Shown piece after piece: positions 1,369-9,478 of a stretch of DNA of 9,478 nucleotides. The stretch comes from a virus (taxonomy: Duplodnaviria; Heunggongvirae; Uroviricota; Caudoviricetes). Location of the stretch: IMG/VR virus record IMGVR_UViG_2648501186_000020. One strand, written 5' to 3'. A program made the translations under genes and the position numbers. The number at the start of each line of letters is the position of its first letter. The stretch's first letter is position 1. Under the pieces are notes generated by a model that did not search any database, was not told the origin of the DNA, and saw only the letters and a list, made by a program, of their open reading frames with translations.

Positions 1369-1444
1369 GCCGATATAGCTCAGTTGGTAGAGCAGCGCAT
1401 TCGTAATGCGAAGGTCGTAGGTTCGACTCCTATTATCGGCACCA
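1369..1444 (+). tRNA. thrW: tRNA-Thr (anticodon CGT), 76 nt including CCA
   Basis: GCCGATATAGCTCAGTTGGTAGAGCAGCGCATTCGTAATGCGAAGGTCGTAGGTTCGACTCCTATTATCGGCACCA. Cloverleaf elements are visible: D-loop AGCTCAGTTGGTAGAGC, anticodon loop with CGT, T-loop GGTTCGACTCC, 3' CCA. Position after proA matches thrW. Confidence 0.93.
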
Positions 1445-1458
1445 TTAAAATCAATAAG

Positions 1459-2622
1459 TTACACATCATTAGTACCTTCCTTATTTTTTGACTGGGACAA
1501 ATTTGGGACCGATGGGTTCAGGATCGAGTCTATTTGCCGTGCGTGTTCGGTAAGGTGATTAGGTGCAAGGTGAGCATATCGACGAACCATTTCGATAGAC
1601 TCCCAGCCTCCCATTTCCTGTAACACTGACAACGGGACTCCGGCTTGAACCAGCCAACTTGCCCAGGTGTGTCTCAAGTCGTGAAATCTGAAATCATCAA
1701 TACCAGCCCGTCTCAGCGCCGCTTTCCAGGCTGTGTTTGCGTCATACCGCATCTTCCTTACTGTTGGCGCTTTCGTTCCGTCTGGTTTGGTACAGCTTTC
1801 CTTGTACACAAATACCCAACGGTGATGATTCCCGATTTGTTTTTTCAATACGCGACATGCAGTATCATTCAGCGCAACGCCAATTGCGCGGTTTGATTTA
1901 CTCTCTTCCGGGTTTATCCATGCCACCCGGCGCTGCATATCTATTTGTTGCCATTCAAGGTTGATGATGTTCGAGCGTCTTAAGCCTGTTGCCAGTGCAA
2001 ATTCAACAACAGACTTTAATGGCTCCGGACATTCATCAATCAGCCTTTGTGCTTCATGGGGCTCCAGCCAGCGGATCCGTTTATTCTTTGGTTGAGGCAC
2101 TTTAATAATTGGTGCCTTATCCAGCATTTTCCATTCACGCTCTGCGGCTCTTAGTAGGGCCTTTATAAATGAAAGATGCGTAGCCTTCGTTGCAACGGAC
2201 GCTGGTTTTGGCGTGTATTCTGGAACAGGTTTCCCTTTTTTTCTGCATGCTTCTGCCCTGAGTTTCCAGTTTTCCTCATGACGCCGGTTCGTCATTTTCT
2301 GCATTGCTGAATAAATTTTTGATTCAGTAATGTCTCTTAGTTGCATTCCTGCGAAATGTTGAAGCCAGAATCCGATCCGGCTTTTGTCATCGTCCAGTGA
2401 TTTTTTATGTGCTTTCTCTTCAAGCCACCTGACACAAGCTTCCTCGAACGTTATATCAGGTATTTCACCAAGTTTGCTGACCCGCCATGCTTCAGCCTTT
2501 AGCTTGTCATGGAGTTCTGTCGCCTGCCTTTTGTCCTTTGTTCCAAGAGACTGTTTAAATCTTTTACCGTTCGGCAATGTGAAACTGGCGTACCATATTT
2601 CACCTCTGCGGAAGAGTGACAT
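1459..2622 (-). CDS. int: Phage tyrosine integrase, P22-like, 387 aa
   Basis: ORF begins [14 protein letters not shown] (typical arm-binding N-terminus). C-terminal catalytic region has HDLRHTWAS (HxxR) and RRYAHL (Tyr). Stop lies 15 bp from the 3' end of thrW, the known P22 attachment site. Length matches P22 Int (387 aa) from memory. Confidence 0.92.
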
Positions 2623-5434: not shown

Positions 5435-6109
5435 TTAGGCTTTGATTTTGTATCTTCTTGGTTTTCCTGAGAAAATCACTGTACCAATTATAGAGCAATT
5501 ACCGTTGATCTTAATGTAAGGCTCAGGCCAGTTTGGGTTTAACGCTTTGAGATAACGCTGTGTCCCATCTTCTATCAACCTTTTGAAGGTGGTTTCACCT
5601 GTATCGTGCATCAATGCAATAACGTCGTCACCGTGGCAGGCAGGTACTTCAGGATCGACAAAAATCATGTCTCCCGGGCGGTACTCATCAATCATTGAAT
5701 CACCTATCACCCGCAAGATATAAGTCATTTCCCCACAGGGTACAGGGCAGGGATACGTTTCTGCTGTGCTCAAATCAACCTCAGAATATCCAACTTCTTT
5801 CCATGCTCCGGCCTGTACCCATGATATGACAGGGACTAATGTGATTTGTTTATTAGTGATTGAAACATCAGGTTTTTTTGTGATGTTCGTTGTCTGGTGT
5901 TCTTGATCGAGCCATCCGACAGGCAGGTCGAAACATTTTTCGATGTGTCGTGCCATGCTGTCACCGATATTTTTAGTAGCACCATCTCCCATAAACCTGC
6001 TGGTCTGGGTTGGCTCGCGATCAATCATAGTGGCAAAGGAAGAATTCCCGCCAACACCATCTCTCAGTTTTCTGGCGTTAGACCGCCGGATGTCATGGAT
6101 TGTTTTCAT
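5435..6109 (-). CDS. cI: Prophage repressor, CI / C2-like, 224 aa (N-terminal HTH, C-terminal S24 LexA-like autopeptidase)
   Basis: C-terminal VIGDSMIDEYRPGDMIFVD contains the S24 Ser motif; TFKRL supplies the Lys. Candidate Ala-Gly cleavage site in WVQAGAW. Divergent from a cro-like gene across an operator-rich spacer. Confidence 0.88.
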   Translation of the reverse strand: MKTIHDIRRSNARKLRDGVGGNSSFATMIDREPTQTSRFMGDGATKNIGDSMARHIEKCFDLPVGWLDQEHQTTNITKKPDVSITNKQITLVPVISWVQAGAWKEVGYSEVDLSTAETYPCPVPCGEMTYILRVIGDSMIDEYRPGDMIFVDPEVPACHGDDVIALMHDTGETTFKRLIEDGTQRYLKALNPNWPEPYIKINGNCSIIGTVIFSGKPRRYKIKA

Positions 6110-6431: not shown

Positions 6432-6995
6432 ATGAGGCTAATCGTGGGTAAGCATCACTGGAAAATAGAAAAACAGCCTGAGTGGTACGTGAAAGCTGTC
6501 AGAAAAACTATCGCGGCGTTGCCGGGTGGTTACGCTGAAGCGGCTGACTGGCTCGATGTAACAGAAAACGCTTTATTCAACCGCCTTCGTGCAGATGGCG
6601 ATCAGATTTTCCCGCTGGGATGGGCAATGGTTTTACAGCGTGCTGGTGGCACTCACTTCATTGCTGATGCTGTGGCGCAGTCTGCAAATGGCGTCTTTGT
6701 GTCTCTTCCTGACGTCGAGGATGTGGACAACGCCGATATCAACCAACGCCTGCTGGAGGTCATTGAACAGATCGGCAGTTATTCAAAACAGATTCGTTCA
6801 GCAATTGAAGACGGTGTAGTGGAACCGCATGAGAAGACAGCAATTAACGACGAGTTGTACCTCTCAATTTCGAAGCTGCAGGAGCATGCAGCACTGGTCT
6901 ACAAAATTTTTTGCATTTCAGAAAGTAATGACGCCCGCGAGTGTGCAGCTCCGGGCGCCGTGGCGTGTCGTGACTGTGGAGAAACTAACGCATGA
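6432..6995 (+). CDS. Hypothetical protein at the cII position, 187 aa (possibly a YdaT-like CII functional analogue)
   Basis: ORF directly after cro. A GTG at 6444 with SD GAGG (6434-6437) may be the true start. C-terminus is Cys-rich ([14 protein letters not shown]). Stop TGA overlaps the next ATG as ATGA. Product assignment is a guess from position. Confidence 0.6.
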
Positions 6996-7330
6996 ACAGT
7001 TTAACAACACACTACCGTCGCTCGCAACTGATTGCGCTTCCTGTACCGGGTGGAAAAGCGAAGGTGGAGTATTGCTATGCAGTGAATGTACCAGGTGACA
7101 GGGAAATTGTAACCCACAGCTTTGCAGAGTGGGCTGTGGGGGATTTCAACCGGCAGAAGGAGGCAGTCCTTTGCGACAAGTTAACCGCTGGTTCAAAGAT
7201 CACTACGGAGTGCCCGTCAGAGTCATTCGTTGGGAGCCGGAAACACAACGGGTTATCTACCTCCGTGAAGGCTATGAGCATGAGTGCTTCAGCCCGCTCG
7301 AACAGTTTCGTCGTAAATTCAGGGAAATAG
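6992..7330 (+). CDS. Hypothetical protein, 112 aa; conflicts with same-strand ORFs in another frame, see findings
   Basis: Strong SD GGAGA (6978-6982) and ATGA start/stop coupling with the upstream gene. The C-terminal third ([24 protein letters not shown]) has low-complexity character. Confidence 0.4.
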
Positions 7331-7350
7331 AGGTCGGTCATGAGCACTAA
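7129..7350 (+). CDS. Alternative small ORF, 73 aa, mutually exclusive with 6992..7330 over most of its length
   Basis: More protein-like composition ([34 protein letters not shown]). Ends 11 nt into the O-like gene. No obvious SD at its ATG. Confidence 0.3.
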
Positions 7351-8281
7351 ATTAACCGGCTATGTATGGGATGGTTGCGCAGCGTCAGGCATGAAATTAT
7401 CCAGCGTGGCAATTATGGCCCGCTTGGCTGATTTCAGTAATGACGAAGGTGTGTGCTGGCCATCAATTGAAACCATTGCCCGCCAGATTGGCGCGGGGAT
7501 GAGTACCGTCAGAACGGCTATCGCACGGCTGGAAGCAGAAGGCTGGTTAACGCGTAAGGCGCGTCGCCAGGGTAACCGCAATGCGTCGAATGTTTATCAG
7601 CTTAACGTTGCGAAGCTTCAGGCAGCGGCATTTTCTCAACTGTCAGATTCTGACCCGTCAAAATCTGACGTATCAAAATCTGACCCGTCAAAATTTGATG
7701 CGTCGAAATCTGGCAAAAAAGCGGGTTTTCACCCGTCAGAATCTGGCGGGGATCCGTCAGTAAAATCAAAACATGATCCGTCAGATAAAAAACCTTCTCG
7801 TCCGGACGCTTCGCAACCGGACACGCAGACGGCTGAACAGGATTTTTTAACTCGCCATCCTGATGCGGTTGTATTCAGCCCTAAAAAGCGCCAGTGGGGA
7901 ACGCAGGATGATTTGACCTGCGCACAGTGGCTCTGGAAAAAAATCATTGCCCTGTACGAGCAGGCCGCCGAATGTGACGGCGAGGTGGTTCGTCCCAAAG
8001 AACCGAACTGGACAGCATGGGCAAACGAAATTCGCCTGATGTGTGTGCAGGATGGTCGTACTCACAAACAAATCTGCGAGATGTACAGCCGCGTCAGCCG
8101 CGATCCGTTCTGGTGCCGTAACGTGCTCAGCCCGTCGAAGTTGCGGGAAAAATGGGATGAGCTTTCCCTGCGCTTATCGCCGTCCGTCAGCACGCACACA
8201 GAAAAACGTGAAGACCCGTACTTCAAAGCCAGTTACGACAACGTGGACTACAGCCAGATCCCGGCAGGATTCAGGGGGTGA
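7340..8281 (+). CDS. Replication initiation protein, lambda O-like (N-terminal HTH, repeat linker, C-terminal domain), 313 aa
   Basis: SD AGAGG with 6-nt spacer. N-terminus has the replication-initiator-type HTH (SVAIMARLADFSNDEGVCWPSIETIARQIGAGMSTVRTAIARLEAEGWL). Internal iterons encode a DPSKSD repeat linker. Sits at the O position after cro and the cII-position gene. Confidence 0.82.
   Translation: MSTKLTGYVWDGCAASGMKLSSVAIMARLADFSNDEGVCWPSIETIARQIGAGMSTVRTAIARLEAEGWLTRKARRQGNRNASNVYQLNVAKLQAAAFSQLSDSDPSKSDVSKSDPSKFDASKSGKKAGFHPSESGGDPSVKSKHDPSDKKPSRPDASQPDTQTAEQDFLTRHPDAVVFSPKKRQWGTQDDLTCAQWLWKKIIALYEQAAECDGEVVRPKEPNWTAWANEIRLMCVQDGRTHKQICEMYSRVSRDPFWCRNVLSPSKLREKWDELSLRLSPSVSTHTEKREDPYFKASYDNVDYSQIPAGFRG
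7652..7792 (+). repeat. Putative replication origin iterons inside the O-like gene: four in-frame tandem 15-bp repeats (7652-7711) plus three more spaced CCGTCAG copies
   Basis: GACCCGTCAAAATCT / GACGTATCAAAATCT / GACCCGTCAAAATTT / GATGCGTCGAAATCT, then CCGTCAGAATCTGG (7733-7746), CCGTCAGTAAAATC (7755-7768), CCGTCAGATAAAAA (7778-7791). Analogous to lambda ori inside gene O. Confidence 0.6.
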
Positions 8282-8283
8282 TC

Positions 8284-8709
8284 ATGAGTCTTTTGAATGA
8301 CGTTCAGAAATTCATTGAAGCCCATCCGGGCTGTACTTCCGGAGACATTGCAGATGCTTTTGCTGGTTACTCACGGCAGCGCGTTCTGCAGTCAGCAAGC
8401 AAGTTACGTCAGAGTGGGCGTGTGGCTCACCGTTGTGAAGGAGATACACGCAGACATTTCCCGCGCCTGACTGAGAGAGCGCAGGAGCCGGAACCACAAT
8501 CTGTTCGTGAAACCAGACCTGTGCGCAATTTCTATGTCGGCACTAACGATCCCCGGGTGATTTTGTGCCTGACCCGCCAGGCTGAAGAGCTGGAGTCCAG
8601 GGGCTTATACCGTCGTGCTGCAACGGTGTGGATGGCGGCATTCCGTGAAAGTCACTCCCAGCCAGAACGAAACAACTTTCTGGCGCGTCGAGAAACGAAG
8701 TATGAATAA
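8284..8709 (+). CDS. Hypothetical protein, about 141 aa, with a C-terminal PerC/Pch-like motif
   Basis: ATG at 8284 preceded by AGGGGG; a GTG at 8278 overlaps the O stop. C-terminal EELESRGLYRRAATVWMAAF resembles the PerC-family signature as recalled. Stop overlaps the next ATG. Confidence 0.6.
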   Translation: MSLLNDVQKFIEAHPGCTSGDIADAFAGYSRQRVLQSASKLRQSGRVAHRCEGDTRRHFPRLTERAQEPEPQSVRETRPVRNFYVGTNDPRVILCLTRQAEELESRGLYRRAATVWMAAFRESHSQPERNNFLARRETKYE

Positions 8710-9478
8710 TCTGATGGTCATTGATGGTATTGAAGTTCGTCGTGATGCTTATGGGCGTTACAGCCTGAACGATCTGCATCGCGCAGCAGTAGCATCTGGT
8801 GCAAATGCCAGAACCAAGGAGCCAGGAAAGTTTCTTTCCAGCCAACAAACTGTTGAGCTTGTTCATGAATTAACCAACACCCAGAATTTGGGTGTTGACC
8901 CGGTGAGTGTGATTCATGGGGGAAATGAACGGGGAACGTATGTCTGTAAGGAACTGGTGTATGCCTATGCAATGTGGATCAGCCCGTCATTCCATCTGAA
9001 GGTGATCCGTACTTTCGATATGGTAACCAGCGCGCCGGAAAAGTTATCCGGACAGGCTGCTGACAAGATGCAGGCTGGCGTGATTCTGCTGGACTTTATG
9101 CGCCGGGAGTTAAACCTGTCTAACTCATCTGTGCTTGGTGCCTGTCAGAAACTCCAGGAGGCTGTTGGCTTACCGAATCTGGCACCGCGCTATGCCATTG
9201 ATGCTCCTGCTGACGCGCCTGATGGCTCAAGTCGCCCTACGCTGTCGCTGAGTGCACTGCTGAAACAGTATGGTATCCGCCTTACGGCTAATCAGGCATA
9301 TCACCAGATGGCGAAGCTGGGGATCGTCGAACAGCGCGAACGATACAGCCGTACAGCGATTAACAACATCAAAAAATTCTGGTCGCTGACGGCGAAAGGC
9401 TGCATGTTCGGCAAGAACATCACCAGTCCCGCAAATCCGCGCGAGACGCAGCCGCATTTCTTCGAATCCCGATTCCCA
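8702..9478 (+). CDS. KilA-N domain protein (antirepressor-like, with an ANT/KilAC-like C-terminal region); 3' end lies beyond the window
   Basis: Open frame from ATG 8702 to the window edge with no stop (259 codons); absent from the track because it has no stop. N-terminal region (GRYSLNDLHRAAVASG...GTYVCKELVYAYAMWISPSFHLKVIRTFD) fits the KilA-N/APSES pattern. Confidence 0.72.
   Translation, partial: MNNLMVIDGIEVRRDAYGRYSLNDLHRAAVASGANARTKEPGKFLSSQQTVELVHELTNTQNLGVDPVSVIHGGNERGTYVCKELVYAYAMWISPSFHLKVIRTFDMVTSAPEKLSGQAADKMQAGVILLDFMRRELNLSNSSVLGACQKLQEAVGLPNLAPRYAIDAPADAPDGSSRPTLSLSALLKQYGIRLTANQAYHQMAKLGIVEQRERYSRTAINNIKKFWSLTAKGCMFGKNITSPANPRETQPHFFESRFP

Follow-up and report, generated by a model that had tools for sequence, protein, structure and literature searches.

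A 3'-truncated yfdN allele in the replication region of a lambdoid prophage, and the PerC-like domain of full-length YfdN

Does a small open reading frame in the replication region of a lambdoid prophage encode a regulator of host genes? An earlier note on this locus had described a small protein downstream of the replication gene O with a PerC/Pch-like motif behind an N-terminal domain of about 90 aa, and had suggested that, should the resemblance be correct, a regulator of host genes lies in the replication region of the prophage. The window, that is the whole stretch of DNA analyzed (9,478 nt), contains a prophage of lambdoid type, integrated at tRNA-Thr (thrW) beside proA, with the integrase gene immediately adjacent to the tRNA. 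The features of the window are as follows.

1-1254: proA, at the start of the window
1369-1444: tRNA-Thr(CGT) (thrW)
1459-2622, minus strand: tyrosine integrase gene
5435-6109, minus strand: LexA-type cI-like repressor gene
between the cI-like repressor and the CII-like gene: cro/YdaS-type gene
6432-6995: CII-like gene
7340-8281, plus strand: O-like replication initiator gene (Pfam HTH_36 and PHROG 391 'replication initiation O-like', E 1.5e-135)
8284-8709, plus strand: truncated yfdN allele, 137 native codons plus 4 new ones (TKYE) and a stop
8702-9478, plus strand, running off the window: KilA-N domain gene (Pfam KilA-N, E 2e-22)

The entire window is 100% identical to Escherichia coli ETEC1706, except for two IS insertions in ETEC1706, and 100% identical to strain 210221272 (L003), where the sole difference is 802 bp. 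A comparison with the PADLOC defence models gave no meaningful match. The EcCIMP1 island of strain MP1 also adjoins proA (PMC11773190).

The placement of the small protein downstream of O holds: the O-like gene ends with TGA at 8279-8281, and the ORF, on the plus strand, opens 2 nt later with ATG 8284 and closes with TAA at 8707-8709, giving a product of 141 aa. In PGAP annotation an alternative GTG at 8278 is chosen as the start; the ATG is favoured here because distant relatives all open with MSL. The native part of the protein is identical to E. coli K-12 YfdN (b2357) in 134 of 137 residues (98%) and matches PHROG 1324 with an E value of 5.6e-63. The K-12 gene occupies the same position as the window gene, in the cryptic prophage CPS-53/KpLE1 beside the O-like remnant yfdO. 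Identity is 96% to orf40 of phage SfV and 67% to Sb43 of Salmonella ST64B, and YfdN at 95-99% identity is present in phages SfV (orf40), SfII, SfIV, mEp460, Stx2c phages and others, with further family members in phages of Salmonella, Hafnia and Enterobacter. A query spanning 7300-9478 (O-like gene, yfdN and KilA-N gene) matched 3,372 of the 5,426 complete E. coli genomes. The ORF is yfdN with its 3' end missing; the intact gene is conserved in the early-right operon of lambdoid phages of the SfV/e14/CPS-53 type. A 462-aa repeat protein recovered in the search of representatives (P0172) was rejected as a spurious low-complexity match.

The relationship of YfdN to PerC is already known from annotated genomes and from the literature. 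Thousands of genomes carry for this gene the PGAP name 'yfdN: PerC family transcriptional regulator', the YfdN family is labelled 'transcriptional activator' in PHROG and in several phage records, and a 2018 paper, which called yfdN 'the K12 unique PerC homologue', removed the gene as a safeguard ahead of its tests of Pch proteins (PMC5931665). The gene was also among those scored in an overexpression screen for glycogen (PMC2853380), and computational interaction prediction assigned YfdN to a subnetwork for 'negative regulation of transcription' (bioRxiv 10.1101/2025.05.07.652715). Our literature search found no experiment addressing the function of YfdN itself. What is new here is the truncation of the window copy, the three-part architecture of YfdN and the conservation of its position in relatives of only 36-38% identity.

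The following parts of the window protein are referred to below; numbering in the full-length YfdN model runs 2 ahead of that of the window protein.

8284-8469, plus strand, aa 1-62: winged helix-turn-helix domain (AF2 helices 2-15, 21-27 and 33-46, beta-hairpin 49-62, pLDDT ~90)
8470-8550, plus strand, aa 63-89 (63-91 in the full-length protein): variable linker (model residues 65-82 with pLDDT <50)
8551-8694, plus strand, aa 90-137: incomplete PerC/ANR-like helical domain, comprising helices 1 and 2 and the first half of helix 3
8584-8643, plus strand, aa 101-120: the motif of the earlier note, EELESRGLYRRAATVWMAAF, which aligns with EPEC PerC KYLEEKGFYRRAADRWAEIM
8690-8693, no strand: deletion junction, a 4-bp microhomology GAGA at which 802 bp are missing

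The PerC/Pch-like motif withstood each of the direct comparisons. The Pfam PerC profile (PF06069) matched aa 98-137 of the window protein at profile positions 5-44 of 90 with 24.4 bits (E 3.5e-5), narrowly above the gathering cut-off of 22.6 bits, and untruncated YfdN matched positions 5-56 with 36.1 bits. With a significant profile match obtained, the PerC relationship stands. EPEC PerC (89 aa, from plasmid pMAR2, with the core at residues 6-56) was 41% identical to the window protein over 32 aa in BLASTP and 37% identical to a full-length YfdN allele over 46 aa, the variable C-terminal half of PerC being without counterpart. A profile of the family C-terminal domain, built from 18 diverse YfdN members, aligned with PerC residues 6-56 in hhalign at 97.2% probability (E 4e-11, 51 columns), and in the YfdN family alignment the majority of the columns of EELESRGLYRRAATVWMAAF are invariant. 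A word-indexed search with the C-terminal-domain alignment, aimed at Pch, PerC and ANR proteins, returned YfdN fragments only. At the level of sequence comparison the PerC resemblance of the ORF was thus confirmed as real and beyond chance.

PerC/Pch proteins and YfdN have in common a homologous core of about 50 residues, A-x-x-LE-x-x-G-[FLY]-[YW]-RRAA-x-x-W ... ER ... R-x-x-C-[IL]-x-K-S, and all of them, PerC on the EPEC pEAF plasmid, PchA/B/C on EHEC prophages and YfdN, are carried by mobile elements. They differ in how the core is built into the protein. A PerC or Pch protein consists of one domain and is about 90-104 aa long; its core is N-terminal, and its C-terminal half is different. 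In YfdN, by contrast, the core (from aa 98) stands behind a winged helix and a linker and is followed by a conserved tail of its own. The window copy departs further from PerC in that its core is incomplete: helix 3 lacks its final R-x-x-C-[IL]-x-K-S stretch, which the full-length allele has. PchE was considered as a YfdN-type protein and rejected, as its transcript starts upstream of ECs1586 and spans ECs1586, ECs1587 and pchE (PMC7369912).

The cause of the missing stretch was mapped base by base against strain 210221272, whose flanks are 100% identical to the window. Left-hand identity runs to 8693 and right-hand identity begins at 8690, which places a deletion of 802 bp at the 4-bp microhomology GAGA. 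Relative to that strain, yfdN has lost its final 25 codons, and rusA and a small gene of the LexA family (LexA_DNA_bind type) are gone altogether. At normal yfdN loci a LexA-family gene, rusA and sometimes dam follow, whereas the first two of these have been deleted in the window. Compared with K-12 YfdN, SfV orf40 and ST64B Sb43, the window protein ends after residue 137, to which TKYE is added; the frame now reads ...ARRE-TKYE-stop and overlaps the start codon of the KilA-N gene, which in the undeleted relative lies 802 bp farther downstream, behind rusA. The junction was found in one of the 5,426 complete E. coli genomes (ETEC1706), where the sequence is identical and PGAP annotates it as a pseudogene, 'missing C-terminus', of a 'PerC family transcriptional regulator'. 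The exact 141-aa product occurs on 4 contigs in a collection of 15 billion proteins, and because of this recurrence we regard the truncated allele as real but rare. The opposite polarity, an insertion of 802 bp in all other genomes, is implausible, as relatives of ~30% identity conserve the tail that the window copy lacks.

The damage to the protein falls on conserved positions. The PerC score drops from 36.1 bits for the full-length protein to 24.4 bits for the window copy, which is without profile positions 45-56, the conserved cysteine and 11 of the 51 columns aligned with PerC. Helix 3 is cut mid-way by the deletion, which removes this cysteine together with the tail CLRKS...WYLSGNYVG; the residues lost that are at least 90% conserved in close relatives are C141, L142, R143, K144, S145, W155, Y156, L157, G159, Y161, V162 and G163. 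The cysteine, nearly invariant in the YfdN family, aligns with Cys47 of PerC, and both it and the tail, in the form [WFC]-x-L-[AS]-G-[RN]-[YF]-x-G, recur in many relatives of 29-46% identity. Given the loss of the conserved cysteine and tail and the cut through helix 3, the window allele would be inactive or strongly impaired, and the sequence comparison points to an allele that is probably crippled. The truncated protein does keep the winged helix, helices 1 and 2 and half of helix 3 and still scores above the Pfam threshold, and a residual or altered activity is possible.

The deletion also touches the gene that follows. The Shine-Dalgarno context of the KilA-N gene has changed from TAAGAGGAGAAACGAAGTATG to GTCGAGAAACGAAGTATG (8690-8709; L003:1895-2704), and as the original context has been replaced, translation of the KilA-N gene may now depend on coupling to truncated yfdN.

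The N-terminal part of about 90 aa described in the earlier note does precede the motif, but it is not a single domain, consisting instead of a winged helix-turn-helix of ~62 aa and a disordered linker of ~28 aa. This division rests on an AF2 model of full-length YfdN (mean pLDDT 79); the full-length protein has 162-164 aa, and the length typical of the YfdN family is 160-164 aa. In a Foldseek search of the PDB the N-terminal domain was matched by the winged helices of SmtB, ArsR, BlaI and MarR with an rmsd of ~2 Å over ~60 aa; these matches have a probability of 1.0 but E values of only 0.04-0.2, and the Pfam MarR_2 match is below threshold (E 2.9e-4). The linker is the most variable and most gapped stretch of the family alignment. 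In the C-terminal domain the model places helices at 92-107, 111-124 and 128-151 (full-length numbering), followed by a short tail of low confidence, and the domain modelled alone has a pLDDT of 81.

Fold comparison of the C-terminal domain gave matches that are statistically weak overall (E 0.06-0.6). Foldseek against the PDB returned only non-significant TPR/MIT-like helical matches, and a family-profile sequence search of the PDB returned nothing under E 0.5. The best fold neighbours among viral models were phage proteins of ~60 aa, two of them named 'ANR family transcriptional regulator', with an rmsd of 0.6-0.8 Å and a TM score of 0.89 but E values of 0.06-0.3. In summary, full-length YfdN combines a predicted winged helix and a flexible linker with a domain of three helices that is homologous to the conserved PerC/Pch core and ends in the conserved tail C-L-R-K-S...W-Y-L-S-G-N-Y-V-G.

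The three-helix domain also resembles, more weakly than it does PerC/Pch, the ANR anti-activators. The NCBIfam model ANR_neg_reg (NF033650) scored 21.9 bits with the window protein and 23.6 bits with the full-length protein, below its cut-off of 32, and all 21 of the 21 aligned relatives matched it over profile positions 5-51 of 54, likewise below the cut-off (22-24 bits). Members of the ANR family (Aar, Rnr, Cnr) share with the YfdN C-terminal domain a three-helix module of about 50-60 residues, and models of ANR phage proteins superpose closely on it. ANR proteins are however free-standing, below 10 kDa, and bind AraC-type regulators and H-NS (PMC4983702, PMC5570504), whereas YfdN carries an added DNA-binding-type domain and is a two-domain protein of 141-164 aa. 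For Aar, binding to AggR and H-NS has been described, with helices 2 and 3 required (PMC4983702, PMC5570504).

The genomic position of yfdN is more conserved than its sequence. It lies directly downstream of the HTH_36/O-like gene in the window, in SfV, in K-12 and in relatives of 36-38% identity, and in these last the gene order is cI, cro/YdaS, CII-like, DUF4222, HTH_36/Phg_2220_C O-like replication gene, YfdN, methyltransferase, LexA-like, RusA, antirepressor, DUF968 and Q. The early-right genes abut closely or overlap, and the intervals between them contained neither a promoter nor a terminator consensus, from which we infer that yfdN is part of an operon. Kept gene order in distant relatives together with the tight junctions argues that YfdN is a core early gene and not a terminal 'moron' as the pch genes are. 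The proposal that the prophage carries a Pch-type host-gene regulator finds no support, yfdN being a position-conserved core early gene that phages of Salmonella, Hafnia and Enterobacter carry too. Lambda Ren is encoded in a comparable place, with the replication genes on one side and the nin/rusA region on the other; its match to the YfdN N-terminal domain (L015:2281-2568 against 8284-8469; PHROG 142, E 0.009; hhalign 27% identity over 49 columns, E 0.06, probability <1%) is not significant, and Ren, unlike YfdN, has no PerC-like part.

The pairing of yfdN with the O-like gene is not obligate, since O-like homologues occur without YfdN: in Klebsiella phage ST101-KPC2phi6.3 an unrelated 70-aa ORF stands behind an O-like gene of 72% identity, and in a Providencia phage the O-like gene (44% identical over the C-terminal domain) has a methyltransferase directly next to it. 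A distant protein with a winged helix plus PerC domain is located between recombination genes and xis/int. Over residues 166-277 the O-like protein shares 39% identity with the P-contacting C-terminal domain of lambda O, yet no P-, DnaC- or DnaB-like gene was found in the window's phage group. Within the O-like gene, where a SKSD/PSK repeat linker is encoded, six TCTGACCCGTCAAAA-like iterons with a 15-bp period were seen at 7633-7748; they are probably the replication origin of the phage, in a layout as in lambda O.

What YfdN does can be approached from its relatives and from its position. A functional activator of the PerC/Pch type, with which the prophage would turn on host or virulence genes such as ler/LEE1, would agree with the true homology to the PerC core, with the 'transcriptional activator' label given by PHROG and several phage records, and with the fact that pch genes are likewise prophage-borne (PMC5931665). 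However, YfdN and PerC share no more than 37% identity, over 46 aa, nothing in YfdN corresponds to the variable C-terminal half of PerC, yfdN sits at a fixed core position and not at that of a terminal cargo gene, and the window copy is truncated. The YfdN family moreover extends to phages of Salmonella, Hafnia and Enterobacter, hosts in which LEE is not known to occur. LEE1/ler activation has been reported only for PerC and PchA/B/C; PchD has no effect, and PchE does not activate LEE and represses curli/csgD (PMC5931665, PMC6265319). Nor do the PerC-like proteins of phage-inducible chromosomal islands (PICIs) activate ler: one represses LEE1, and its authors noted a resemblance to ANR, while for two others no effect was reported (PMC11773190). 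We therefore consider such an activator very unlikely. A role in the slot of lambda P, in which YfdN would bind the O-like C-terminal domain and help recruit DnaB/DnaC at the iteron origin, seems to us just as improbable. It would account for a gene that begins 2 nt after the O-like stop in a phage group without a P-, DnaC- or DnaB-like gene, for the 39% identity of the O-like C-terminal domain to that of lambda O and for the iterons at 7633-7748, but YfdN does not resemble lambda P (hhalign probability 0.4%), the O-like homologues of the Klebsiella and Providencia phages lack a YfdN partner, the distant winged-helix-plus-PerC protein sits in the recombination/xis-int region, and all detectable homology leads to regulator families.

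Slightly less remote, though still doubtful, is an ANR-type anti-activator, whose three-helix module would bind and inactivate one particular transcription factor, be it a host regulator of the AraC family or the phage's CII-like YmfL, while the winged helix did no more than anchor the protein. Every YfdN family member matches the ANR model over nearly its whole length, phage ANR proteins are the best viral fold neighbours, and the resemblance noted for the repressing PICI protein (PMC11773190) points the same way. Yet the scores of 22-24 bits compare with a curated cut-off of 32, whereas the PerC model was passed, and ANR proteins are single-domain and below 10 kDa (PMC4983702).

The reading we prefer, with somewhat more confidence than doubt, is that the window carries a truncated yfdN allele and that full-length YfdN is a phage regulator in which a winged helix is combined with a PerC/ANR-like module that disturbs a complex of a nucleoid protein or regulator. 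Full-length YfdN would be transcribed with the replication genes and would act in early phage development; its winged helix probably directs it to DNA, and the PerC/ANR-like module probably disturbs a nucleoid-protein or regulator complex, as in its relatives. Possible targets, by analogy, are silencing of the H-NS/StpA type, as for Pch, or H-NS together with AraC-type regulators, as for ANR. Pch lowers the occupancy of H-NS at LEE1, an effect that depends wholly on silencing by H-NS/StpA (PMC4764244). YfdN is unlikely to be a classical activator, and phage or general targets are more likely than LEE.

A broader version of this preferred reading would make the YfdN type the ancestral, phage-core form of the PerC/Pch/ANR module, loosening H-NS-type silencing or neutralising a regulator on phage DNA, with the free-standing PerC/Pch and ANR proteins as spin-offs and the truncated allele possibly dominant-negative. 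In that scenario, which we hold to be improbable, the truncated allele might retain DNA binding and so act in a dominant-negative manner.

The designation as a PerC-family regulator in the earlier note was right as to family; it was, however, already annotated and published, and this copy is truncated by the 802-bp deletion. For the locus itself the finding matters little, as the PerC link of yfdN was in annotation and in print and the copy is damaged. It bears more on a very common prophage gene of E. coli, Shigella and Salmonella that is routinely labelled 'PerC family transcriptional regulator/activator', a label that is itself predicted. Since the relatives of YfdN comprise activators (PerC, PchA/B/C) as well as repressors or anti-activators (PICI PerC-like, ANR), and since its architecture is unlike that of PerC, with an added winged helix and a tail of its own, this label should not be taken to mean 'virulence activator'.

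Other yfdN genes also show changes of structure. Many YfdN products in the databases are joined to Dam (PF05869), RusA (PF05866) or HTH_3 domains (P0005, P0006, P0011, P0012, P0018, P0064), and in phage cdtI (H54/H55) only the first 26 residues of YfdN are kept, in front of dam; mosaic or recombination boundaries seem to fall frequently in yfdN. One Enterobacter relative carries its yfdN homologue as two ORFs, one of 76 aa for the N-terminal part and one of 91 aa that is PerC-like (L009:1342-1837, L008:5785-6276). Whether it is a frameshift or a natural two-gene form, this split is a second route of decay or remodelling for yfdN.
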